A DNA stretch of 64,000 bases from Archaeoglobi archaeon JdFR-42 (GTDB taxonomy: Archaea > Halobacteriota > Archaeoglobi > Archaeoglobales > JdFR-42), in contig MTND01000026.1 of NCBI GenBank assembly GCA_002010305.1, forward strand, positions 78,236-142,235. Reading direction: 5' to 3'. Shown in pieces: positions 4,429 through 42,250 of the stretch (its first letter is position 1; each line of letters opens with the position of its first letter). The notes below the pieces were generated by a model. It saw only the letters and a list, made by a program, of their open reading frames with translations, made no database searches and was not told the DNA's origin. Both the position numbers and the translations under genes were made by a program.

Positions 4429-6201
4429 CTATTTGCCCCAGAAGGGGTTGTTTCTTCGTTTAATATTTAAAAATTCCTCAAAGACTACCATCTCATCGGA
4501 TGTCATAGATCCTGCCAGATCGGTTTCAAGAATTTTGGCATGTTTCTCAGGAATATCAACATACAGTATTTCATCTTCTTTTATCTGTCTTCCTATCATC
4601 ACACCATCGATGGAAACTGCCACTTCACTCCCAGTTTTAGCAATTCCTACATTTTCTCCCCGGTCTTGGATTCCTTTGACTTGGCCAACCACTGTACCGT
4701 TTGTTTTCATCAATTTAACGCCATTTCTCAGCTCTCCACCCAGTACCCTCACACCGGCTATTGCTGGCTTACTTCTCCGGAATATAAAATCTGGAAGTAA
4801 TTCAATCTTTCCGGGACGAATAATTGTCTCAACTTTCATTTTTTCTATTTTCTTCTGTTCTTCTTCCTCCCATTCCTTAAAATCCTCAATAAGCTTATAA
4901 ATGACATTTCCATGGAATATCCTAACATCGTAAGTGGATGCTTCTTCTTCCACACCGGGAAGGATCTTTACATTAAATCCAATTATCACCTTCAGCAAAG
5001 GGTTCTTAACAGTTCCTGCTTCTATAACATCACGTTTGGTTATATTCCCAACTTCTGCAATCCTGATTGGAATATTCTCATTTCTCAATTCATTTATTAT
5101 CGCCTCAAGAGAACCTATAGCATCTGCTTTTACAATAATTCCTTCCTCGTCAGTTTCTATCTTAATGCTCTCATATTCCTTTTTCATTTCTTTCAGGAAT
5201 TCCTCAATATCTTCTTCCTTCTCTACTGATGAGAATTCACTTCCAGCCAGAACGTTTTCGATATCCTGAGCAACAATTTTAATTCCGGCTGCAGCAGAGA
5301 CCTCATCAACCTTCTTAAACTTACTCTCAACTCGCATTTCAGCCATTTCCCGTGGCTTAAAAATACCCTTCACATGAGTTATAACTGGCTCCTCAATTCC
5401 ACCTATTATCAACTTATCACCAGTATGAAGAGTTCCATCATACAGGATGGCATCCATGGTAAGACCAATTCCCCGCTCTTCTTTAATCTCTAAAACAGTT
5501 CCTCTAGCTTTACCAGAGACATGAAGCTTCAAATTGTCTTCCAGAAATTTTTGGGCCAGTCCAACCAGAATCATCAAAAGTTCCGCCACACCTTCACCAG
5601 TCTTGGCACTGATAGGTACAACACACACCGTTCTCTGAAAATCTGTTATTCTATCAAATCGCTCAGCCTGAAAATTTGTGGAGTATAGCTCACCAATTAA
5701 CTCATAAAGCTGCTCTTCCAGTTTAGTTTTAACCATATCTTCCTGCTGATTGAAAGACTCGATAAAAGAGTAAGTGTTGAAACTCTGCCATCCTGCAATC
5801 CTGTCTATTTTATTGGCTGCAACAACGAAGGGGGTTCTTAACGCCTTGAGAATGTTTATTGCTTCATGGGTTTGAGGCTTAAATCCCTCGTTTATATCAA
5901 CAACCAGCACTGCCAGATCAGCCAGAGCACTACCCCTTCTTCTTAAATTGGTAAAAGCATGATGACCAGGGGTGTCTATAAAGAGTAACCCAGGGATAGT
6001 AACCTTGGTCCTTGACAATTTTTTACTGATGTCCATAATTACATCGATAGGGATCTCTGTAGCACCAATATGCTGTGTTATCCCCCCTGCTTCTTTCTTG
6101 ACAACCCTGGAACCCCTTATGGTGTCAAGGAGAGTTGTCTTTCCATGATCAACATGTCCGACCACTGAAACGATAGGGGTTCGTAGAGCCAAGTACAACA
6201 C
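4429..6201 (-). CDS. infB: Translation initiation factor aIF5B (IF-2)
   Basis: 590 aa with GTPase motifs 'GHVDHGKT', 'DTPGH' and 'NKID'. It has a GTG start that abuts the ndk stop. Confidence 0.95.
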   Translation of the reverse strand: MLYLALRTPIVSVVGHVDHGKTTLLDTIRGSRVVKKEAGGITQHIGATEIPIDVIMDISKKLSRTKVTIPGLLFIDTPGHHAFTNLRRRGSALADLAVLVVDINEGFKPQTHEAINILKALRTPFVVAANKIDRIAGWQSFNTYSFIESFNQQEDMVKTKLEEQLYELIGELYSTNFQAERFDRITDFQRTVCVVPISAKTGEGVAELLMILVGLAQKFLEDNLKLHVSGKARGTVLEIKEERGIGLTMDAILYDGTLHTGDKLIIGGIEEPVITHVKGIFKPREMAEMRVESKFKKVDEVSAAAGIKIVAQDIENVLAGSEFSSVEKEEDIEEFLKEMKKEYESIKIETDEEGIIVKADAIGSLEAIINELRNENIPIRIAEVGNITKRDVIEAGTVKNPLLKVIIGFNVKILPGVEEEASTYDVRIFHGNVIYKLIEDFKEWEEEEQKKIEKMKVETIIRPGKIELLPDFIFRRSKPAIAGVRVLGGELRNGVKLMKTNGTVVGQVKGIQDRGENVGIAKTGSEVAVSIDGVMIGRQIKEDEILYVDIPEKHAKILETDLAGSMTSDEMVVFEEFLNIKRRNNPFWGK

Positions 6202-29586: not shown

Positions 29587-31422
29587 ATGAGACTGACAAC
29601 ATTGGTTGTGCTGTGTTTGTTTATTGTAATAAGTCTTCCCTGGGTCTCTTCAGCGGATCTACTTGAGAACACCAGTAGTGTAACTGTCAAAGCCCCGGCC
29701 GTATCCGCAGGTCCTGAGCCAGAGGGTGCTGTGATCGAGATTACCGTATACGTAACTGAAGGAAAGGGAAGAGTTTTCGTAAACACCGAGCCTTTTACTC
29801 AAATAGATATGCAGGGTAGTGCACGACTGGCTGCTATTGTGGCCACAGACCTCCTTGGGATAGATTTCAATAGATTTGATTACTTCTATGTCATCAAAGC
29901 AGAAACTCCAGTTGTGGGAGGTCCATCTGCAGGAGGCGTTATGACCGTTGCTACTGTAGCTGCCATAGAAGGGTGGACCATCAACGGATCTGTGATGATG
30001 ACTGGTATGATCCTCCCTGATGGCTCAATTGGCCCCGTAGGTGGAATCCCTTACAAACTTGAAGCAGCAAAATTAGAGGGTGTAAAGCTATTTCTCGTCC
30101 CTGCTGGTCAGACACTCGTGATAAGAGAGAAAAGAGAGACAGTTGAGCGTGGTCCATTTATTTTTGTCAGGACTGTTAAGGAGCCCATAGATCTTGTAAA
30201 ATATGGAGAGGAGATGGGTATTACAGTAAAAGAGGTCTCTGATTTGAATGAAGCTGTGAAATATTACACAGGATATGCAGTAAAACAATTGATGGGAGGC
30301 AACATCTCATCTCAGACTTACACAGAAATATCAAGGACTATGGCAGATGCAATGAAGAAAGACACAAATAGACTGTTTGAACAGGCTAAGAAATATGGTT
30401 CCTTGACAGGTATTGAAGATCTCTTGAAAGTAGCGCAGGAAGAATACGACTCTGGAAATTATTATTCAGCAACAAGCACTATGCTTACTGCCCGAATTCA
30501 GATGAGACAGATTATATATTCAAATACCCTGATCGATGAGAAAGCCATTAAAGATGAGATGACCTATATTGATAAAGAAATAAACGATCTAAAAGAAGAC
30601 CTCAAAAATGAGTCTATATTAAACTTACAGGCTTTTCAACTAATTGGGACTGCAGAAACCAGACTTTATATGGCTGAGAACTATCTTCAGCAAGCAAAGG
30701 AAGCTGAGAGTTTTTCACAGGCAATTACATATCTGGCCCTTGCAAGAGAACGCCTAGAAACAGCCAAGATCTGGTTAACCCCTTATCATGAAGGAGTGAT
30801 CAGATCTTCTGGAATGGTCATATCTGAGAACAAACTTAGAGACAGGGCCAATTTTTATATTTCTCAGGCTCTATCTCTTGAAACCTATGCATCTTCTATT
30901 GGGGGGCATCAAGAATTACTTTCAATGGCTGATTCCTCTATTGAACTGGCGAGATCCATGTTTGCTGATGGCCTCTATGCTGGTGCTGTGTTATCTGCAG
31001 TGGATGGAATTGTTGATGCCAGTGTGTCCATTGAAGTCATTGGGATTTCTCAAAATCAGCTGAATGAAAAAGTGGAAAAAGCTAGGATTTCAGCAGAAAA
31101 TTCCATATCTAGACTTAAAGATATATCAGAACCTATAATTCCACTAACAGATTACGAATTCGCTAGAACATCAAAGGATCCGCTGATAAAACTAATATTT
31201 TACCGGTCGGCAGATCAGACTGCGAAAGTTCTGACGTTTATGAGCAAATCACAACCTCAGATAATGACAGAAACAGAGAAAGCTGTTAATAATGAGAGTG
31301 GAGTGCCAGCCGAAACTCCTGTACCACAAGAAAATCCAGAACTTCCTGGCTTTACTCTCTCTTATTCAATTTTATCAATTATAGTGACTCTATTTATTAT
31401 AGCCCATTACAGAAGACGCTAA
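29587..31422 (+). CDS. Secreted Lon-like (S16) serine protease with a PGF-CTERM sorting signal
   Basis: 611 aa. It has a signal peptide 'LVVLCLFIVISLPWVSSA', the Lon proteolytic motif 'GGPSAGGVMTVA' with a downstream 'YKLEAAK', a long helical region, and the C-terminal 'PELPGFTLSYSILSIIVTLFIIAHYRRR'. Confidence 0.8.
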   Translation: MRLTTLVVLCLFIVISLPWVSSADLLENTSSVTVKAPAVSAGPEPEGAVIEITVYVTEGKGRVFVNTEPFTQIDMQGSARLAAIVATDLLGIDFNRFDYFYVIKAETPVVGGPSAGGVMTVATVAAIEGWTINGSVMMTGMILPDGSIGPVGGIPYKLEAAKLEGVKLFLVPAGQTLVIREKRETVERGPFIFVRTVKEPIDLVKYGEEMGITVKEVSDLNEAVKYYTGYAVKQLMGGNISSQTYTEISRTMADAMKKDTNRLFEQAKKYGSLTGIEDLLKVAQEEYDSGNYYSATSTMLTARIQMRQIIYSNTLIDEKAIKDEMTYIDKEINDLKEDLKNESILNLQAFQLIGTAETRLYMAENYLQQAKEAESFSQAITYLALARERLETAKIWLTPYHEGVIRSSGMVISENKLRDRANFYISQALSLETYASSIGGHQELLSMADSSIELARSMFADGLYAGAVLSAVDGIVDASVSIEVIGISQNQLNEKVEKARISAENSISRLKDISEPIIPLTDYEFARTSKDPLIKLIFYRSADQTAKVLTFMSKSQPQIMTETEKAVNNESGVPAETPVPQENPELPGFTLSYSILSIIVTLFIIAHYRRR

Positions 31423-31468
31423 TTTTACAGGCATAAGGTTTTTATTTTTAACAACATACCTATAATTG

Positions 31469-31915
31469 ATGGAAAAGCAATACAGATACCCTATAGAATT
31501 CGTAAAGCATTATTATATATCGGTGATTGGAGGGTTCAGTCCCGAACTCGACAGGAGAGAGGTGGGAATTAACCGGGATGCAATTCAATACAATACAGAA
31601 CTCGTAGGCTATCACGATACGGTTATACTGAGAAGGGTAAGGGGAGGTAAGATAAAACCATTTTTTATGAAGAGGCCTTACACACTTATTCCTCTGGATG
31701 AACAGACTCCTGCATCAGTGGAGAAGTCCAGATCTGGAGAAGTTGTTCTTTCGGAGAAACTCCTAGATGAACTGGAAAAGAAAAATATCATCCGAAACCC
31801 ATACATGACTCCATGTATCGGTGAGGAGATCCTGATAAACTCCACTGTCACTAAATTACTGAACGAGAGATGGTTGGAACGTATGGCAGCTAAATATTTT
31901 GGAAGAGTAAACTGA
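31469..31915 (+). CDS. Hypothetical protein
   Basis: 148-aa ORF starting at ATG 31469. No family was recognised. Confidence 0.5.
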   Translation: MEKQYRYPIEFVKHYYISVIGGFSPELDRREVGINRDAIQYNTELVGYHDTVILRRVRGGKIKPFFMKRPYTLIPLDEQTPASVEKSRSGEVVLSEKLLDELEKKNIIRNPYMTPCIGEEILINSTVTKLLNERWLERMAAKYFGRVN

Positions 31916-31947
31916 TGGCTCAGGCCAATATTATTACAGGTGGAGAA

Positions 31948-31969
31948 GAGACTTTTTTCTTTTTGTCTC
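31948..31969 (+). terminator. Short hairpin enclosing a T-rich tract
   Basis: 'GAGAC-TTTTTTCTTTTT-GTCTC' lies 33 nt after the stop at 31915. Confidence 0.35.
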
Positions 31970-32040
31970 ATTATTTCAAACTTATTTCGTTAGAAACACC
32001 TAAATAGATTGCATTCATTAATTAAATATGGTGATATTCC

Positions 32041-33531
32041 ATGTCAGGATATATTGACATGGGATCCGGGTATCAACCCTCTTCCCGTGATATGGCTGAA
32101 GAGATGGCGGGACTTATTGAAAGATGGCTTGGAAATCCTGCTTCAAGAGCCATCCTGAAATTCTGCACTCATCGATGTGAGTGTGGGCGGAGGATTGAGC
32201 TGATCTTACTAAAATATGCTGGCGAAGATGTGGATCTATGTTTCAAATGTAATTTAGCCTACTCACTGGTAAAGAAGATACTGGATAGGATAACTTCCGT
32301 ATTCAATGTAGAAAGGGAGAAAATATCTACAAATCTTAGGGATGCCATGTGGAGGAAGGGATTGGCAAGTGTTCTCGAAGGTATTGCAGCATACGGCCCT
32401 GAGAAACCTTTTACTGCCTTTGCTCCTTTTCTTGTGGTATGGAATGTAACCAATGCCTGTAACTTGAAATGCAAGCACTGTTATCAGAATGCAGACAAAC
32501 CAACTTCTGACGAATTAACTACTGAAGAGGCTCTAATGGCTGTGGACAAGATGGCCGAAGCTGGAGTTGCTTATCTAGCCATTTCAGGGGGAGAGCCTTT
32601 GGTCCGAAAAGATTTCTTTACCATAGTTGAAAGAATTAAAGACAACGACATGGCATTCTCTTTAGCAACAAATGGAACTCTTCTTACTAAAAACAAAGTT
32701 AAAAGACTAGAAGAGAGTAACTGCCTGTTTATCCAAGTATCACTGGATGGAGCAAAACCAGAGACCCATAACACATTCAGAGGTAAAAATAGTTTCGAGA
32801 AAACGATAGAGGGGATTAAAAACGCAGTTGATTCCAGCATCACTGTTGGGATAGCCACAACGGTAACTAAATATAACTACAGGGAAGTCTTTGACATAAT
32901 AAATCTGGCTGAGAAACTTGGTGTGGATATTTTTATGCATTATAACTTCATCCCTACAGGAAGAGGGAAAGAAATGATGGAAATGGATCTATCCCCTGAA
33001 GAGAGAGAGGAATTCCTTAAAAAAATGGCGTCCCAAATACATGCAAGAGATATATCACTCCTCTCAACCGCTCCTCAGTATAGCAGGATATGCAGTGAAT
33101 TCTCTGCAGTGAGTCTGACTCATTTTGATACGTTCGGTCAGAGATCTCAGGGTGTGGATTTTCTGGCTGAATTTGTAGGTGGATGTGGTACGGGAAGGTT
33201 ATATTGTGCTCTCCAGCCGAATGGAGACATAACCCCATGTGTTTTTATTCCCATCGTTGTGGGAAACATAAAGCAGGATGATATTCTAGAGGTATGGCAT
33301 CACAGAGAAGAATTTAAAAAAATACGGGCAAGAGATGAGTTCGAAGGGTGTTCTCGTTGTGAGCATGTGACCATTTGTGGAGGATGCAGAGCCAGAGCTC
33401 TTGGATACTTTGGAGATTTGCAGGGTCCAGATCCAGGTTGCATCATAAATCGCAGATACTGGTGCCGCCTTGAGACTGAAAGTGTAGGAATTAATATAAA
33501 AATTCCTGAAAGAGAGAAGGCATATTCTTAA
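32041..33531 (+). CDS. Radical SAM/SPASM-domain enzyme with a Cys-rich N-terminal extension
   Basis: 496 aa. It has the radical-SAM 'CNLKCKHCY', a SPASM-type C-terminus ('CGTGRLYCALQPNGDITPC', 'CSRCEHVTICGGCRARA...DPGC') and an N-terminal 'CTHRCECG...CFKC'. Confidence 0.9.
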   Translation: MSGYIDMGSGYQPSSRDMAEEMAGLIERWLGNPASRAILKFCTHRCECGRRIELILLKYAGEDVDLCFKCNLAYSLVKKILDRITSVFNVEREKISTNLRDAMWRKGLASVLEGIAAYGPEKPFTAFAPFLVVWNVTNACNLKCKHCYQNADKPTSDELTTEEALMAVDKMAEAGVAYLAISGGEPLVRKDFFTIVERIKDNDMAFSLATNGTLLTKNKVKRLEESNCLFIQVSLDGAKPETHNTFRGKNSFEKTIEGIKNAVDSSITVGIATTVTKYNYREVFDIINLAEKLGVDIFMHYNFIPTGRGKEMMEMDLSPEEREEFLKKMASQIHARDISLLSTAPQYSRICSEFSAVSLTHFDTFGQRSQGVDFLAEFVGGCGTGRLYCALQPNGDITPCVFIPIVVGNIKQDDILEVWHHREEFKKIRARDEFEGCSRCEHVTICGGCRARALGYFGDLQGPDPGCIINRRYWCRLETESVGINIKIPEREKAYS

Positions 33532-33571
33532 GATGTCTTAAAAAGGGGAAGGTATTTATTTTCTTCTCAAG

Positions 33572-34726
33572 ATGTATTTTGCAATGGACAAAAAACTCAG
33601 CCTAGTCTCTATAACAGTGTTTTTGGCATATGTAGGAGCCTTCATCAGAGTACCAATCGTACCTCTTTATGCCAGCAATCTGGGCGCTGACAACTTTGAA
33701 GTAGGGTTAATAACTTTTGGATTTATGATAGTAGCTGGAATTATGGCATTTCCTCTTGGCTTCACATCAGACAAAATTGGCAGAAAGAAACTCATGCTTG
33801 CAGGTCTTGGAATTAGCGCTGTAAGTTCAGTGTTACTTTCATATTCTACAAACCCAGAAGAGATAATTTTAGCATATCTTTTTGGTGGTATTGGAATGGC
33901 CTCATTTGCACCAAGCATATCTTCTTACGTAGGGGATATAGCACAGCGAATGGGACAGTCCTATGGCTGGTTTACTGCCTTTATGCAGGGTGGAATGGCC
34001 TTTGGACCTGCTCTAGGTGGGTTTCTGGCAGGAACAATTAGCTTCCATAATACGTTCATAATCTCTGCCCTCTTTTTTGTATTTAGCATTCTGGTGGTTA
34101 TTCCATTACCTGACAGAGGCCACAGGATAAAGGGCAATAATTTCCTGACCAGCATCAGAGAGTTATTTAATATTCCCCTGATATCTACTAGCTGGTTGGC
34201 AGTGTTTACCATTGCCTTTGCTTTTGGTGTGTTCATGCCCTTCTTCCCTCTATATGCAAGGGATCTCGGTATTGCTACCTTTTTTATCGGACTTCTTTTT
34301 GGCATTCAGTCCATATCCAATGCTGTTGGGCGAATACCAGCCGGATACATATCTGACAAAACTGGAAAAAGAGACCCTTTCATAGTGGGAGGTATGATCC
34401 TGTTCTCTATCCTTATTTATATGATCTCTGTAAGCACAACATTTATCACACTGGCAGTTATTGTGGCTGTACTGGGACTGGCTATGGGAATTACAACCAC
34501 CAATCTAAGCACTATTCTCGCTGAATCTGCGCCAAAGGGCATAAGGGGCCTTACAATGAGCGGATTTAACTCATTTTTATATATCGGCTTCGCTTCCAGT
34601 TCTCTCTTTGGAGGTAAACTTATTGAGAACCTTGGTAGCTATTCTTATGGCTTCATGCTGGGCAGTATTGTATGTCTTTTCGGTGGAGTTGTGTACTGGT
34701 ATGCCACCAGAAAAATTGGAAATTAG
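33572..34726 (+). CDS. MFS transporter
   Basis: 384 aa with about 12 TM segments and the loop 2-3 motif 'SDKIGRKK'. Confidence 0.88.
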   Translation: MYFAMDKKLSLVSITVFLAYVGAFIRVPIVPLYASNLGADNFEVGLITFGFMIVAGIMAFPLGFTSDKIGRKKLMLAGLGISAVSSVLLSYSTNPEEIILAYLFGGIGMASFAPSISSYVGDIAQRMGQSYGWFTAFMQGGMAFGPALGGFLAGTISFHNTFIISALFFVFSILVVIPLPDRGHRIKGNNFLTSIRELFNIPLISTSWLAVFTIAFAFGVFMPFFPLYARDLGIATFFIGLLFGIQSISNAVGRIPAGYISDKTGKRDPFIVGGMILFSILIYMISVSTTFITLAVIVAVLGLAMGITTTNLSTILAESAPKGIRGLTMSGFNSFLYIGFASSSLFGGKLIENLGSYSYGFMLGSIVCLFGGVVYWYATRKIGN

Positions 34727-37644: not shown

Positions 37645-38038
37645 ACAGGTCCTCCTTTGCATCCTGAATCATTTTCTTATGGTCAAAGGCAAGATCTGGA
37701 AGTGCATCCAATGGAAACAATTCCACTTCTTTAGCATCACTTCCAGCCCTTAAATTCTCACTGGTGGGAAGCACTATGTAGCAGATAGATACTACATGAC
37801 CTCTGGGATCTCTTGCAGGACTGGAATATACTCCAACCAGTTTAAAGACTTTTCCGTCAACTCCAACTTCTTCCCTCACCTCTCTTAGCACGGCACTTTC
37901 AACTTCTTCACCGTATTTTACCATACCTCCTGGCAATGCATACAACCCTTTATATGGAGGGTATTTTCTTTTAATCAAAACGATTTTTCCTTTAAAAGGG
38001 AGAATTGCATCAACTGCCAGGGTTATTTTCTTTTCCAT
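37622..38038 (-). CDS. NUDIX hydrolase
   Basis: 138 aa with the Nudix box 'GGMVKYGEEVESAVLREVREEVGV'. Confidence 0.88.
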   Translation of the reverse strand: MEKKITLAVDAILPFKGKIVLIKRKYPPYKGLYALPGGMVKYGEEVESAVLREVREEVGVDGKVFKLVGVYSSPARDPRGHVVSICYIVLPTSENLRAGSDAKEVELFPLDALPDLAFDHKKMIQDAKEDLYGILSQM

Positions 38039-38679
38039 GATACTGCGATATTACTCCCCTTTTTAAAATAGGTTTCTCCAATTCGTCTAGACCATTCGAT
38101 ATTACCGACTTCTGACACAAGATGAGCGTCACTCCCTGTGGAATAATTTAAACTATAATGTCTGCATATTCCAAGAGTGTAATCATCAGGAACTAGATAG
38201 GCTTCATTAATTTCTATGGCAACAGAATTTTCAACCATGATTTCAAAGAGATCTTCCACTAATTCCATATTCCTTATTATCCAATTCGCTCCCACACCAT
38301 AATGGGCAAGGACATCAACATCGTTATCCTGAAAAACTTTGATAAGGAGTTTATGGTATTCCTGAAAATTCAGAGGTCTGTGAATACCCACCACAACAAA
38401 ATCCAAGAAATCACGGGAGTTTGGAGGTATATCCAAGGTCCCATCCGGAAACACTTCAGCTTCAATTCCACTAAGAATTTCCAGGCTGTATTTCTCAACA
38501 GCATCCTCTATTTCCCTGTACCGGTTTTTAATTTTCCTTGCTGTGAGGCCCGTAATATGAGAGGGGCCGTGGTCTACTATTCCTATAATCTTCATTCTCC
38601 GTTCAACCGCCTTTCTTGCTATCTCTTCTATGGTACCATTTCCATCAGAATAACAAGAATGAACATGTAGATCAGTCAT
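38023..38679 (-). CDS. PHP-domain metal-dependent phosphoesterase
   Basis: 218 aa with 'DLHVHSCYSDG' and 'IGIVDHGP'. Confidence 0.8.
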   Translation of the reverse strand: MTDLHVHSCYSDGNGTIEEIARKAVERRMKIIGIVDHGPSHITGLTARKIKNRYREIEDAVEKYSLEILSGIEAEVFPDGTLDIPPNSRDFLDFVVVGIHRPLNFQEYHKLLIKVFQDNDVDVLAHYGVGANWIIRNMELVEDLFEIMVENSVAIEINEAYLVPDDYTLGICRHYSLNYSTGSDAHLVSEVGNIEWSRRIGETYFKKGSNIAVSWKRK

Positions 38680-38726
38680 TGGTAATGGAAAAGAGTATAT
38701 ATGTCTATTAAAAACTTATCACTCGC

Positions 38727-39491
38727 ATGAATCTGCTACTACCGGTGGCACTGCTCTTGATGCTGGGTTTCGCGATTATGCGATTGAGAGTTGTTGGTGT
38801 ATTTGGATGGATAATATTTGCCCTTTTCTGGTTTTCCAAAGCTCCGGGATACATTCAGATAGGAGACTACTACAACACAGGAATAGTGTTACTGGCCGGA
38901 ATCTTCTTTATTCTATTAAGTTATACCATTTCAGTTGTAGATCCAGATAAGCTGAAATTGATGTCCCAAGTAACCTTTTTTTCAACCCTTGCGGGGTTAA
39001 TTTATTTCCCTTTTGCTATTATTGAGACACTGAGAGATTCTCTGATCTCTCTGGTAATTAATCTGATCCTTACCACAGGTCATTATTTGGGTTATAATCT
39101 CACTCTGTATTCCTGGAACATCATTGAGTCCAATGGTCGATATGTGGAGATCATCCCGGCCTGCACTGCTATTGAGAGTATAGCTCTTTTCACGGGAGCC
39201 TCTTTTGGTGTGTCAGCTCCCTTCAACAGGAAGATTAAAGCTTTTGTCATTTCAGTCTTTCCAATTTTTTTCCTCAACATTTTAAGAAATGTATTTGTAA
39301 TTTTAGCCTATTCCTATAGCTGGTTTGGTGATAACAGTTTCTATATTGCTCATCACGTTATCTCAAAAATAGGGGCCACTGTAGCCCTTATTGCCATAGC
39401 CTATGCTGTATTTGAGATTCTCCCAGAACTTGAAAATCTCCTAGTGGGTCTTAAAAACACATTTATTGAGGTGATGAGGGGTAAAAAATGA
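38727..39491 (+). CDS. artA: Archaeosortase (exosortase-family transpeptidase, ArtA-like)
   Basis: 254 aa, polytopic. The candidate catalytic residues appear in the expected order: Cys in 'IIPACTAIES', Arg in 'NILRNV' and His in 'IAHHV'. Confidence 0.78.
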   Translation: MNLLLPVALLLMLGFAIMRLRVVGVFGWIIFALFWFSKAPGYIQIGDYYNTGIVLLAGIFFILLSYTISVVDPDKLKLMSQVTFFSTLAGLIYFPFAIIETLRDSLISLVINLILTTGHYLGYNLTLYSWNIIESNGRYVEIIPACTAIESIALFTGASFGVSAPFNRKIKAFVISVFPIFFLNILRNVFVILAYSYSWFGDNSFYIAHHVISKIGATVALIAIAYAVFEILPELENLLVGLKNTFIEVMRGKK

Positions 39492-40069
39492 TCGAGAGAT
39501 CTGTCTGGCCTATTATTACAGTGCTTGGATTTATGGTCGTTATAGGGATGACCGTTAATATCATCCTGTCAGCCCTTTTTTTCTTTGGAATTATATTCAC
39601 CCTTTTTTTCTTTAGAGATCCTGATCGACAACCGGCTGGGACAGGTGCTGTCTCTCCTGCCGATGGGAAAGTTAAAAAAGTAGAAGGTAATAAGGTTGAA
39701 ATATTCATGAATCTCTTAGACTGTCATGTTAATAGAGTTCCTTGGGGGGGAACTGTAACGAAAATTATATACTATAAGGGGAGTTTTTTTCCAGCATTCA
39801 GGGATGACATCGAAGAAAATGAGCGAAATGAAGTAATTATTTCCACAGATTATGGTGAGTTAACGGTAACCCAGATAGCGGGATTTTTTGCACGAAGAAT
39901 TACTTGTTATCTTAGCAAAGGCCAGAAAGTTAGGAAGGGCGATAGGCTGGGTATGATTCGCTTTGGGTCTCGAGTTCATGTGCATTTTCCAAGAGCTTTT
40001 CGGATCATCGTTAAGGAAGGGGATAGAGTAAAGGCCGGAGAGACCATTATCGCGGTTGTGGAGTCATGA
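39488..40069 (+). CDS. psd: Archaetidylserine (phosphatidylserine) decarboxylase proenzyme, short archaeal type
   Basis: 193 aa with N-terminal TM helices and the self-cleavage motif 'RFGSRV'. It overlaps artA as ATGA. Confidence 0.87.
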   Translation: MIERSVWPIITVLGFMVVIGMTVNIILSALFFFGIIFTLFFFRDPDRQPAGTGAVSPADGKVKKVEGNKVEIFMNLLDCHVNRVPWGGTVTKIIYYKGSFFPAFRDDIEENERNEVIISTDYGELTVTQIAGFFARRITCYLSKGQKVRKGDRLGMIRFGSRVHVHFPRAFRIIVKEGDRVKAGETIIAVVES

Positions 40070-40731
40070 AATTCGAAATTATTGAAGGAATAAGACTTCC
40101 AGATCTAGTATCCATATGCAATCTCCTGGTAGGTCTCCTGGGGATCTGGGTATCCTTTCTTAACCTATATTATGGTTGCATTGCAGTGATAATCTCTACA
40201 CTACTCGACGGACTCGATGGGATTGTTTCTAGGGTTGAACATGGAGGAATGGGGAGAGAGATGGACTCTCTGGCAGATATTGTATCTTTTGGAATACTTC
40301 CTTCGTTACTTCTTCTTTTGTATACTCAGAACCAATTTAACGGACTCTCTTTTGCCATCGCCGGAGCCTTTGCAGTCACTGGTATGCTCAGACTTGCCTG
40401 GTATAATATCCTTCAGGAGAGACATTTCCGGGGAATTCCAATTACTTTTTCAGGACTTCTAGTTTCACTCCTTATAGTGAATGAGTTCGGTGGTGGTTTT
40501 GTTCTGGCTGTATCTGCAATCCTAGCAGTTCTCATGATATCTCCTGCACGCTATCCAAAAATCCTGGACAAGAGAGTTGTATGTCTGTTCGCTCTAACCC
40601 TGATTGCATCTCTCATATACCTGCTTTCTGGAATTGAAATCCTGATGGCGTTTCTTTATGCTGTCTTTTTTCTTATGATCTTATATGCCACATCTCCACT
40701 ATTTATATGGAGGTACATGAATGAAGGATGA
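40066..40731 (+). CDS. pssA: CDP-alcohol phosphatidyltransferase (archaetidylserine synthase-like)
   Basis: 221 aa with 'DGLDGIVSR...GREMDSLADIVSF', which fits the D-G-x2-A/S-R...G-x3-D-x3-D motif. It overlaps psd as ATGA. Confidence 0.85.
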   Translation: MKFEIIEGIRLPDLVSICNLLVGLLGIWVSFLNLYYGCIAVIISTLLDGLDGIVSRVEHGGMGREMDSLADIVSFGILPSLLLLLYTQNQFNGLSFAIAGAFAVTGMLRLAWYNILQERHFRGIPITFSGLLVSLLIVNEFGGGFVLAVSAILAVLMISPARYPKILDKRVVCLFALTLIASLIYLLSGIEILMAFLYAVFFLMILYATSPLFIWRYMNEG

Positions 40732-41080
40732 GATAACCAACAGAGATAACGCCCTGTTTGAAGCAGGGATTAAACTGGGAGCTGTATACCATCAGTTTAT
40801 AGGTATGCCAATAAGAGTTGAATTCATAGAAGAGGCTGAGAAGATCATAGCAAAAAGTATTGCCTCACAGCCTTATGTAATAGACGTCAATGTAGATATA
40901 GATCCAGAGAAGGTTAAAAAGAACTACTCAGACTTCGGTTATGCCGAGTTGAAGGGTGAGTACTTGTCTGTCACTGTGGTTGTGGAATACGGTGGAGTGA
41001 GAGTTACAGCAGGGATGGACTACGACGAAGAAAAGGAATATCCTCTGATGAGGATTGAAAAAATAGAGTCACAAGAGTGA
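40721..41080 (+). CDS. Small conserved archaeal protein, possibly MptD-type dihydroneopterin aldolase (COG2098-like)
   Basis: 119 aa. 'LFEAGIKLGAVYHQFIGMPI' resembles the motif I recall for the archaeal DHNA/MptD family. It overlaps the pssA end by 11 nt. Confidence 0.45.
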   Translation: MKDEITNRDNALFEAGIKLGAVYHQFIGMPIRVEFIEEAEKIIAKSIASQPYVIDVNVDIDPEKVKKNYSDFGYAELKGEYLSVTVVVEYGGVRVTAGMDYDEEKEYPLMRIEKIESQE

Positions 41081-41088
41081 ACTCGGAC

Positions 41089-42090
41089 TCATGGGAACAT
41101 GGGCAGGTGTTCCAGACCTCGCTGTTCAGGCAAACCAAGCATCAAATTCATATTCTGGATGGCTTGACCAGAGGCTCCTTTGACAAGATTATCTATGGCA
41201 GAGATGATGACAAATTGTTCTCCTTCTCCAAAAATCCCTATATCACAGAAATTCGATCCTCTTACTCTAGCAACAGATGGAGAGGACACGAACCTGACAA
41301 AAAAACAGTCATTGTAAAATTCTTCGTAAACTTCCTTAACTTCTTTGGAAGTAAGAGGGCCCTTCAAATATATATGAGCTGTTGTTAAAATTCCGCGATT
41401 AACAGGTATCAGATGAGGGGTAAAGGAGATCCGGAAATCCCCTCCAAGCTTCCATAGCTCCTGTTTTATTTCAGGGGTATGCCTGTGATCTACTACTCTG
41501 TAAGGAACAATGTTATCGCTTATATGCGGAAAATGCGTAAACTCTGTGGGAATTGCTCCTGCTCCTGTTACACCTGACTTGGAATCAAACACAACCATAT
41601 CTATCAGTTTTTCCTTTGCCAAGGGAGCAGCAGCGAGAATAGCTCCGGTAGGATAACAACCTGGATTAGCAATGAGATTGGCTATAGATAAATCCCTATA
41701 CAGTTCCGGAATTCCATATACCGCTTCCCGATATCCCTTATGGGTAATCCCATACGTTGCCTCGTACACATCCTTTTCCAGACGATAATCAGCACTCAGG
41801 TCTATTACCCTCAAACCCATATCCAGCAGATCAGGAATAAATTCCATGGATGTTCCGTGGGGTAAAGCAGAAAACACTACATCACAATCCTTAAATTTCT
41901 CGACAGAGACATTGGTAAACTCCAAGGTATAGGCGCCTTTTAAGTGGAGGTGAAAATCTCCTATACTGGTCCCTGCTGCTTTCCTAGAGGTAACCACTCG
42001 TACCCCAACATCTGGATGGGATTTCAACAATCTCAACAGTTCACTCCCAGTATATCCACTTCCACCTAAAATGCCTACATCCAGCTTCAT
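41089..42090 (-). CDS. argC: N-acetyl-gamma-glutamyl-phosphate reductase (ArgC/LysY family)
   Basis: 'GGSGYTGSELLRLL' and the active-site 'NPGCYPT' are present. I chose the start at 'MKLDVGILG' (42090). Confidence 0.9.
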   Translation of the reverse strand: MKLDVGILGGSGYTGSELLRLLKSHPDVGVRVVTSRKAAGTSIGDFHLHLKGAYTLEFTNVSVEKFKDCDVVFSALPHGTSMEFIPDLLDMGLRVIDLSADYRLEKDVYEATYGITHKGYREAVYGIPELYRDLSIANLIANPGCYPTGAILAAAPLAKEKLIDMVVFDSKSGVTGAGAIPTEFTHFPHISDNIVPYRVVDHRHTPEIKQELWKLGGDFRISFTPHLIPVNRGILTTAHIYLKGPLTSKEVKEVYEEFYNDCFFVRFVSSPSVARVRGSNFCDIGIFGEGEQFVIISAIDNLVKGASGQAIQNMNLMLGLPEQRGLEHLPMFP

Positions 42091-42250
42091 ATGAGAGCCC
42101 ACCTCTTTCACCAGTTTCTCCATATTATATGTAAATTTACATTTAGTACTCTTTTTTCCAGTATTTTTCCCTGTAGTCCAGTTGAAACAGGTAAATTTCT
42201 TTTGAAATCCGATAAAAAATTTTTTATTTCATCCCATATAGCTATTATCA

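Follow-up and report, generated by a model that had tools for sequence, protein, structure and literature searches.

The 64,000-nucleotide stretch of DNA analysed here (the window) carries a block of four overlapping genes, artA-psd-pssA-mptD, whose fourth member is both an orthodox MptD by sequence and, across Halobacteriota, the best conserved neighbour of pssA. We consider it probable that the block combines an operon for protein anchoring with a housekeeping mptD gene, which is kept in place by co-expression and by the overlap. The four open reading frames lie on the plus strand at 38727-41080. Sequence reading gave a 4-nt ATGA overlap at both the artA/psd and the psd/pssA junctions and an 11-nt overlap between pssA and mptD, in full agreement with the coordinates and overlaps of a preliminary description of this DNA. 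The block, its borders and a candidate substrate gene are as follows.

29587-31422, plus strand: candidate ArtA substrate, putatively secreted Lon_C (S16) protein, 611 aa (PF05362, 40 bits)
38023-38679, minus strand: PHP-family gene, divergent from artA, upstream border of the block
38680-38726, no strand: divergent intergenic region of 47 nt between the PHP-family gene and artA
38727-39491, plus strand: artA, 254 aa, archaeosortase A, polytopic membrane cysteine transpeptidase (TIGR04125)
39488-40069, plus strand: psd/asd, 193 aa, short archaeal phosphatidyl/archaetidylserine decarboxylase proenzyme (NF003685, PF02666)
40066-40731, plus strand: pssA/assA-like CDP-alcohol phosphatidyltransferase gene, 221 aa (PF01066)
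40709-40713, plus strand: GGAGG, Shine-Dalgarno-like, within the 3'-terminal part of pssA and 7 nt upstream of the mptD ATG
40721-41080, plus strand: mptD, 119 aa, archaeal 7,8-dihydroneopterin aldolase family (PF04038)
41089-42123, minus strand: argC-like gene, convergent, 8 nt beyond the mptD stop codon

An A-rich stretch with TATATA was read at 38687-38703, 24-32 nt ahead of the artA ATG, and the opposite strand of the 47-nt intergenic region has a TTTAATA-like element toward the PHP-family gene. This region probably holds BRE/TATA promoters, with a leader predicted to be short or absent, and a promoter here would give one artA-psd-pssA-mptD transcript. The stop/start overlaps would couple translation of the four genes, and the GGAGG in pssA may serve as the Shine-Dalgarno element of mptD. 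No structured RNAs were found inside the operon; the window has three tRNAs in total, all of them distant.

The ArtA protein scored 210.8 bits against TIGR04125 (cutoff 75; profile positions 2-262 of 271) and 67 bits against TIGR04178. The next archaeosortase subfamily was heimdallarchaeosortase at 30.6 bits (cutoff 130), so that the subfamily models place the 254-aa protein in archaeosortase A, well above cutoff. The Cys, Arg and His that the preliminary description had seen in the expected order are Cys146 (ACTAIES), Arg187 (LNILRN) and His209, all unchanged across 18 aligned ArtA homologues. The catalytic Cys and Arg are conserved in archaeosortase A, the Cys being Cys173 in H. volcanii (PMC7157517), and motif position suggests that the window residues are the counterparts of the Haloferax catalytic residues. 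The nearest ArtA relative, at 66% identity, is from an Archaeoglobaceae MAG.

Psd scored 234.4 bits against NF003685 (cutoff 183) and 142 bits against PF02666 (cutoff 22), and fell short on the archaeal equivalog model, TIGR00164 (205, cutoff 230), as well as on NF038088 (165, cutoff 240). The RFGSRV previously noted in the decarboxylase was found at residues 158-163; from residue 159 it contains the FGSR self-cleavage motif, which is common to 103 of 112 homologues. The next protein is a CDP-alcohol phosphatidyltransferase, as had been proposed (PF01066, 38.9 bits, cutoff 22), but its assignment as an archaetidylserine synthase reached no curated cutoff. Its best NCBIfam matches are all serine synthases, each scoring under its cutoff (TIGR04217, 119/200; TIGR00473, 105/107; NF038087, 105/240; NF038086, 80/200), and for this reason we refer to it as PssA-like. 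The motif DGivSRx6Gx3Dx3D starts at residue 51 (DGIVSRVEHGGMGREMDSLAD), with a spacer one residue shorter than in 87 of 92 motif-bearing homologues. The best matches together with the adjoining decarboxylase gene point to serine specificity.

The Methanosarcina/Haloferax ArtA system, said to be treated also in Haft et al. 2012, comprises the same three families in the order artA, decarboxylase, synthase. This order was published for Methanosarcina as artA-pssD-pssA and led to the Haloferax work, as the preliminary description had correctly stated; the three-gene module was therefore already known and is not new (PMC7157517). Lipid anchoring by ArtA, HvPssA and HvPssD in Haloferax volcanii rests on genetics and a model (Abdul-Halim et al. 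2020, PMC7157517). The likeness to this system extends to an ArtA above the cutoff of the ArtA-specific HMM, to a neighbouring gene for a candidate substrate with a PGF-type tail, and to the proposed role of archaetidylethanolamine as the nucleophile resolving the ArtA thioester. Here, however, the host is an uncultured Archaeoglobi-like lineage and the genes overlap, whereas they are dispersed in haloarchaea, and the haloarchaeal 'protein sorting system' models NF038088 and NF038086 score Psd and PssA under their cutoffs. In its main text, the published account of the system has three genes; mptD is the fourth both here and in Methanosarcina itself. Two bacterial sorting systems, rhombosortase/GlyGly-CTERM and exosortase/PEP-CTERM, likewise use a dedicated membrane protease to remove a C-terminal sorting signal made up of a motif, a hydrophobic helix and a basic tail. 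For rhombosortase, which is not homologous to ArtA, there is a report of attachment to a glycerophosphoethanolamine-containing moiety (cited in PMC7157517). Exosortases are homologous to ArtA, but their signal is PEP-CTERM and they are found at exopolysaccharide loci. We know of neither rhombosortase nor exosortase in an operon with a PS synthase, PS decarboxylase or pterin gene.

Homology to characterised systems suggests the following route. The PssA-like enzyme would convert CDP-archaeol and L-serine to archaetidylserine, which Psd, as a pyruvoyl enzyme self-cleaved between FG and SR, would decarboxylate to archaetidylethanolamine. ArtA would use Cys146 to cut the PGF-type C-terminal signals of secreted proteins, and under the published model the ethanolamine amine would resolve the ArtA acyl-enzyme, so that the protein ends up bound to the lipid through an amide.

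The protein encoded at 29587-31422 had been put forward as a PGF-CTERM substrate. It has an N-terminal signal-like segment (MRLTTLVVLCLFIVISLPWVSSA), a Lon_C (S16) domain and a C-terminus ending in ...PELPGFTLSYSILSIIVTLFIIAHYRRR. The tail reads ...ESGVPAETPVPQENPEL-PGF-TLSYSILSIIVTLFIIAHY-RRR, that is, a Pro/Thr/Glu-rich linker, PGF, a hydrophobic stretch of ~20 residues and a basic cluster, so the three-part architecture of the claim stood. The curated model did not bear it out: TIGR04126 (cutoff 24.5 bits) gave no match to this tail even at E<=10. For calibration, a PGF tail from the closest relative scored only 19.5 bits on TIGR04126 and a PEF-CTERM tail scored 44.7 bits on its own model. 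The tail of the 611-aa protein is the only PGF + TM + RRR tail in the window and one of three PGF tails among the 3337 ORFs of all sequence collected. We regard the protein as a candidate ArtA substrate on its visible architecture.

The fourth protein had tentatively been called MptD-like. On the family profile it matched PF04038 over its full length (134.8 bits, cutoff 25; positions 1-108 of 108), and it matched three solved structures, PDB 2iec (3e-21), 2i52 and 2ogf (MJ0408). All 19 family-invariant residues are present, including R8, E14, K18, H24, Q50, Y74 and Y107-P-L-M, and the same residues are found in MJ0408 and in unlinked Asgard and Methanomassiliicoccales members. The FExG..LG...H, QP and YPLM motifs are intact in 120 of the 129 PF04038 homologues collected. 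The protein thus resembles MptD (MJ0408, PDB 2OGF) in full-length match, size and invariant residues, and is small, soluble and without a membrane segment; it differs from MptD systems in its context of lipid head-group and sortase genes rather than pterin genes. Most likely it is an orthodox MptD with the predicted aldolase activity, and it would convert 7,8-dihydroneopterin to 6-hydroxymethyl-7,8-dihydropterin and glycolaldehyde for tetrahydromethanopterin synthesis. MptD/COG2098/PF04038 was reportedly described as the archaeal 7,8-dihydroneopterin aldolase by de Crecy-Lagard et al. 2012 and Wang et al. 2014. No second PF04038 gene was found in any collected locus. Sequence clustering of the collected MptDs gave no sign of two deep clades within the same lineages, and locus configurations were mostly lineage-coherent among the clusters.

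Linkage of mptD to pterin genes elsewhere was found at a single locus, an Asgard contig where the PF04038 gene follows a beta-RFAP synthase gene (NF040726, 353 bits, cutoff 328), an adjacency that fits a methanopterin role for the family. Among the loci examined, no pterin genes were found beside standalone mptD in Halobacteriota; the neighbours there are TGT, fwdB/D-like, CdhD-like, prepilin peptidase, Yip1 and SpoU genes. The preliminary description had offered two options, an MptD that is an unrelated neighbour or an uncharacterised member of the module, and this proved a false choice.

How often the fourth gene accompanies artA-psd-pssA was answered by two independent samplings, by ArtA and by PF04038, and both rejected chance adjacency. 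The gene immediately after pssA belongs to PF04038 in 62 of the 73 evaluable ArtA loci from named genomes. Sampling by PF04038 alone gave 73 evaluable loci, 59 of them with linkage to pssA, psd or artA; the pssA-mptD adjacency itself occurs in 50 of 80 MptD-sampled loci. Named PF04038 proteins retrieved by the profile search were Methanosarcinales- and ANME-like sequences only. Intact four-gene blocks number 95, in Archaeoglobi, Methanosarcina, Methanolobus, Methanothrix, Methanoperedens and Methanocellales-like MAGs, and the same order in 95 independent loci places the arrangement far beyond chance. The genes flanking these blocks belong to at least 23 families upstream and at least 25 downstream. 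The probability that two random species share the gene after pssA is 0.72, compared to 0.08-0.11 for the outer flanks, making the pssA/mptD junction ~7-9x more conserved than the outer borders of the block. Flanks of more than 20 gene families on either side of an intact block weaken the idea that general synteny or inertia is all that keeps it together; we do not discard this idea because the pssA/mptD junction overlaps, as it usually does among the sampled ArtA loci.

Some lineages have a rearranged or missing linkage. In ANME-1-like contigs, mptD is convergent on artA and both psd and pssA are gone; Ca. Alkanophaga keeps pssA-mptD without artA or psd; and in Methanosalsum a ThiF-family gene is inserted between pssA and mptD. 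The linkage is absent from Geoglobus- and Ferroglobus-type loci, ANME-2a and some other loci. Replacement of the missing mptD by another pterin gene was rejected, as the position is taken by unrelated genes or, in Geoglobus-type loci, by a ~930-aa protein after pssA that looks like a leucyl-tRNA synthetase from its N-terminal sequence. Among the papers searched, none on archaeosortase or Methanosarcina together with dihydroneopterin aldolase was found to describe the linkage, and it is absent from the lipid review PMC9385802.

These data bear on why mptD is there. The implicit null of the preliminary description was that mptD is incidental and its place beside pssA peculiar to this genome, the real unit being three genes. 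MptD does belong to an unrelated pathway, an Asgard homologue lies beside beta-RFAP synthase, and a Methanomassiliicoccales homologue has unrelated neighbours. However, the recurring adjacency in both samplings, in several classes and more than 20 flank contexts, Methanosarcina included, refutes this reading and leaves it with almost no probability. Scarcely more credible is a reading in which pssA and mptD form a pterin pair and the PssA-like transferase, instead of or besides acting as an archaetidylserine synthase, makes a phosphodiester in methanopterin biosynthesis, for example the hydroxyglutarate linkage, for which we know of no assigned enzyme. Membrane CDP-alcohol transferases can make soluble phosphodiesters, as DIP synthase does, the window protein lies under all curated serine-synthase cutoffs, and pssA is the tightest partner of mptD even without artA and psd. 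Against this, the best matches are consistently serine synthases and the 'config-B' homologues pass TIGR00473. The gene directly follows that of the serine-lipid decarboxylase in 74 of 80 ArtA loci, and in Haloferax, an archaeon without methanopterin, ArtA function depends on the PssA homologue (PMC7157517; PMC8305020).

A more serious competitor, though in our judgement still an unlikely one, is that the PF04038 protein takes a direct part in archaetidylethanolamine/ArtA anchoring. It would then be a specialised copy or a moonlighting MptD, might serve PssA or ArtA as partner, chaperone or regulator or work on an intermediate not yet recognised, and would count as a genuine fourth member of the module. 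We give similarly low credence to the broader form, in which MptD is a functional partner of the anchoring machinery throughout Halobacteriota, either by moonlighting or by coupling C1-cofactor supply to envelope growth. Such a partnership would explain why mptD stays beside pssA or artA through repeated rearrangements. Survival of a linkage in this way, as in the ANME-1-like, Alkanophaga and Methanosalsum loci, is a classic signature of functional coupling and counts against co-expression as the only cause. The partners vary (mostly pssA, artA alone in ANME-1-like loci, pssA alone in Alkanophaga), and the conserved, overlapping junction with its upstream GGAGG, as well as standalone Halobacteriota mptD genes not lying beside pterin genes, also favour a direct role. 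On the other hand, the retention of all family-invariant residues gives no sign of neofunctionalisation, and the known chemistry, a cofactor-free retro-aldol reaction acting on the side chain of a dihydropterin, finds no obvious substrate in serine/ethanolamine lipid synthesis. The protein is small and soluble and has no membrane segment. Geoglobus- and Ferroglobus-type loci, ANME-2a and some others manage without the linkage, and the lineages concerned require DHNA for H4MPT regardless. To our knowledge, every lineage with the four-gene block is an H4MPT user, and we know of no metabolic link between a pterin-pathway gene and lipid head-group synthesis or sortase action.

The anchoring operon with a housekeeping mptD is the probable explanation. 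The place of mptD directly after pssA is old, being common to Archaeoglobi, Methanosarcinales, Methanoperedens and Methanocellales-like lineages. We take the linkage to be maintained because these constitutively needed genes are co-expressed and their junction overlaps, without a shared pathway.

The three-gene module is textbook-level archaeal surface biology, so this instance merely extends it to another uncultured Archaeoglobi-like lineage. What may be of use is that the gene of a canonical methanopterin-pathway aldolase is the most conserved neighbour of a lipid-synthase gene in at least four archaeal classes, including the genetically tractable Methanosarcina. If co-expression alone is responsible, the block would be a clean case of an ancient mixed-function operon held by overlapping genes. 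If the linkage is functional, MptD would be an unsuspected component of archaeosortase-dependent lipid anchoring, or C1-cofactor synthesis would be tied to envelope growth. Either outcome is testable with existing Methanosarcina genetics.

The four open reading frames that the preliminary description had placed here were reproduced on the forward strand, with overlaps of ATGA between artA and psd, ATGA between psd and pssA, and 11 nt between pssA and mptD:

38727-39491, + strand, artA, 254 aa
39488-40069, + strand, psd, 193 aa
40066-40731, + strand, pssA-like, 221 aa
40721-41080, + strand, mptD, 119 aa

A GGAGG motif lies within the 3' end of pssA, 7 nt ahead of the mptD start codon. On the 5' side, 47 nt of intergenic sequence lie between the block and a divergent PHP-Nudix-TFS-PCNA-primase string; on the 3' side, an argC-like gene in convergent orientation ends 8 nt past the mptD stop codon. 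The intergenic region carries an A-rich stretch and then TATATA, 24-32 nt ahead of the artA ATG, which we infer to be a putative BRE/TATA promoter with a short or absent artA leader. Rfam and ARAGORN searches gave no RNA matches in the operon. The window sequence is identical in GCA_003935005.1 contig RSFX01000006.1 and in the Logan assembly of SRR3723048. Among the best 80 of 438 ArtA matches, the closest (66% identity) is from an Archaeoglobaceae MAG with the same flanking genes as the window.

ArtA scored 210.8 bits against its model TIGR04125 (cutoff 75), which was nearly wholly covered, while all other sortase subfamily models remained far under their own cutoffs. Cys146, Arg187 and His209 were invariant among 18 homologues. 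Judged by profile, gene 1 is archaeosortase A, which settles the subfamily classification that the preliminary description had proposed as a check. Psd passed Pfam PF02666 and NF003685 (phosphatidylserine decarboxylase equivalog; 234 against a cutoff of 183) and has the FGSR self-cleavage motif common to 103 of 112 homologues. For the third protein, the sole cutoff passed was that of the general CDP-alcohol phosphatidyltransferase model of Pfam; the top NCBIfam matches were serine synthases throughout, each below cutoff (119 vs 200, 105 vs 107, 105 vs 240 and 80 vs 200). Its CDP-alcohol catalytic motif is present but 21 aa long, compared to 22 aa in 87 of the 92 motif-bearing homologues, the spacer being one residue under the usual length. 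Because the serine-synthase cutoffs were missed while the catalytic motif was kept with a shortened spacer, we named it PssA-like; the best matches and the neighbouring decarboxylase suggest serine specificity. Its TIGR04217 score was 119 bits, compared to 157-183 for Alkanophaga and termite-gut homologues.

The tentative MptD call for the 119-aa protein held: PF04038, the archaeal 7,8-dihydroneopterin aldolase (DHNA) family, matched at 134.8 bits over profile positions 1-108 of 108. The protein aligned end to end with PDB 2iec, 2i52 and 2ogf (MJ0408) and had every invariant residue of a 17-sequence alignment that included Asgard and Methanomassiliicoccales members. De Crecy-Lagard and colleagues (2012) and Wang and colleagues (2014) are said to have identified COG2098/MJ0408 as the archaeal 7,8-dihydroneopterin aldolase MptD. 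A 229-aa homologue from a JGI metagenome (P0187) scored 208 bits against PF04038, about twice the usual score, suggesting a putative tandem double-DHNA fusion.

The core of three genes is already known, and the block does not represent a novel type of system. In several methanogens, Methanosarcina acetivorans and M. mazei among them, artA adjoins pssA (PMC7157517, citing Haft et al. 2012) with a pssD homologue in between, so the artA-psd-pssA order is already published. As the preliminary description said, that study states that this synteny motivated the Haloferax experiments, in which deletion of hvpssA or hvpssD mimicked artA deletion. In the authors' model, archaetidylethanolamine attacks the ArtA-Cys thioester to form a C-terminal lipid amide. 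The main text names three genes only; mptD is an apparently unremarked addition there.

The fourth gene is no casual neighbour of pssA. We scanned one genome per species by ArtA alignment and analysed the best 80 of 438 matches, from Archaeoglobus and other Archaeoglobaceae, Geoglobus, Ferroglobus, Ca. Mnemosynella, Methanolobus, Methanohalobium, Methanothrix and Methanotrichaceae. Both psd and pssA lay directly 3' of artA in 74 of these 80 loci, and five of the remaining six were contigs ending too early. In the co-occurrence check proposed earlier, 73 loci extended far enough downstream; in 62 of them pssA is directly followed by a co-directional PF04038 gene, usually with an overlap. The exceptions were Geoglobus (3/3), Ferroglobus and a few more. 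In four Geoglobus-type loci, of which three carry a Geoglobus/Archaeoglobaceae label and one has no label, this place was considered for another pterin gene; it is occupied instead by a ~930-aa leucyl-tRNA-synthetase-like gene (N-terminal sequence only). The probability of finding the same gene after pssA in two randomly drawn species was 0.72 in this set, compared to 0.08-0.11 for genes outside the block. Locus genes were longest-ORF calls with heuristic start refinement, making junction distances approximate. Two loci binned as Hadarchaeota and Aenigmatarchaeota, with ArtA 47-48% identical to the window's and in one case (L044) a full Archaeoglobi-type four-gene block, are probably mis-binned Archaeoglobi contigs.

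Metagenomes were also sampled by PF04038 only, taking the 80 loci most similar to the window protein. The full block occurred in 32, psd-pssA-mptD in five (three with the contig ending upstream), and pssA-mptD only in 13, at least six of which had >1.2 kb of upstream sequence without psd and artA. In eight loci mptD was convergent on a true ArtA (TIGR04125, 187-189 bits), in one the cluster lay 4.5 kb away, and in 21 none of artA, psd or pssA was nearby (seven with the contig ending upstream). The module was thus linked in 59 of 73 evaluable loci. Each scan covered the 80 loci closest to the window proteins, all of them outside haloarchaea, Methanomicrobiales, Methanobacteriales and Methanococcales. 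Exact-sequence lookup placed the full block in Ca. Methanoperedens, a Methanocellales/Met12 lineage, peat 'Halobacteriota' MAGs and Methanosarcina (M. flavescens, with AYK15276 ArtA, AYK15277 Psd and AYK15279 DHNA; M. vacuolata; M. thermophila; M. barkeri). The pssA-mptD form was Ca. Alkanophaga, the convergent form ANME-1-like, and one unlinked form ANME-2a. Across 95 intact blocks there were at least 23 upstream and at least 25 downstream flanking gene families. In Methanosalsum zhilinae (L002) pssA and mptD are separated by an inserted 242-aa ThiF-family (E1-like) gene (5236-5964), and the primase-PCNA-TFS-Nudix string further upstream matches that of the window.

Outside Halobacteriota, module linkage was absent in both cases examined: the Asgard homologue lies directly 3' of the methanopterin-pathway enzyme beta-RFAP synthase (NF040726, 353 bits vs 328), and the Methanomassiliicoccales homologue has unrelated neighbours. 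Standalone Halobacteriota mptD genes neighbour TGT, fwdB/D-like, CdhD-like and other genes; none of the neighbours inspected was recognisable as belonging to the pterin pathway. Of the earlier alternative, an MptD linked to pterin genes elsewhere, the MptD match holds; a pterin neighbour was found in one Asgard locus only. On ANME-1-like contigs the gene immediately before mptD, and overlapped by it, encodes a tRNA-guanine transglycosylase (archaeosine TGT) of 486-490 aa (locus coordinates L003 4532-6372, L084 2477-4299, L086 6523-8351; also L089 and L093), with or without a downstream artA. A link to GTP-derived pterin/deazapurine metabolism is common to TGT and MptD. In a Methanosarcinales-labelled clade mptD precedes two same-direction formylmethanofuran dehydrogenase B/D-like genes (L094 8001-9986; L098 2338-4185), called from a weak TPP_enzyme_M match and a Molydop_binding match; this context links mptD to C1 metabolism, not lipid genes.

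The preliminary description had also named a PGF-CTERM substrate near the operon. The protein encoded at 29587-31422 (611 aa) begins with a signal-peptide-like segment and contains a Lon_C/S16 domain and a linker rich in Pro, Glu and Thr. Its C-terminal tail, PGF-TLSYSILSIIVTLFIIAHY-RRR, is the sole one of its kind in the window, and the 3337 ORFs of all sequence examined include three PGF tails, this one among them. The tail architecture stands, but the curated PGF-CTERM model (TIGR04126) gave no match even at E<=10, so the substrate call is architecture-based, not family-tested. For these lineages the model sets a strict standard: the closest relative's tail scored 19.5 bits against a cutoff of 24.5. 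On the same strand follow an AF_0059-family protein (PF27352), a radical SAM/SPASM enzyme (496 aa) and an MFS transporter, and these genes (window 29587-34400; L001 861-6000) could be a peptide-maturation or export cluster. Small secreted proteins whose PEF-CTERM tails are strong (TIGR03024, 44.7 bits) are encoded, singly or in pairs, ~3 kb upstream of artA in Methanolobus-type loci (locus coordinates L054 6576-7154; L060 6517-7173; L070 2974-3945 and 4148-4723; L071 6150-7154; L077 6591-7160; L163 2103-3122), which is curious because PEF-CTERM is normally assigned to another archaeosortase, ArtC.

The four-gene observation is real and its earlier interpretation correct. We favour, with some reserve, an ordinary MptD riding in an ancestral operon. 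This is the simplest reading because MptD has an orthodox sequence, tetrahydromethanopterin is required in the host lineages, and no second PF04038 copy was found at any locus examined (loci, not whole genomes). The operon would go back to an ancestor shared by Archaeoglobi, Methanosarcinia and relatives, and the pssA/mptD overlap would couple mptD translation and make separation costly. A direct functional role of mptD with the module seems rather unlikely, since MptD is small and soluble, the reaction known for it is a cofactor-free retro-aldol cleaving a dihydropterin side chain, and we can propose no chemistry; such a role is kept as a live rival because mptD still has a module partner where the block has been rearranged (in ANME-1 artA, in Alkanophaga pssA), which speaks against purely passive retention. 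A place for the PssA-like enzyme in the pterin pathway instead is highly improbable: its gene directly follows the serine-lipid decarboxylase gene in the 74 of 80 ArtA-sampled loci (best 80 of 438), and Haloferax lacks methanopterin (PMC8305020), yet its PssA homologue is needed for ArtA function.

Among the open-access papers and preprints searched, the conserved and, from gene overlap, probably translationally coupled mptD appears to be an unremarked feature of a known cluster, and its linkage is amenable to simple genetics in Methanosarcina.
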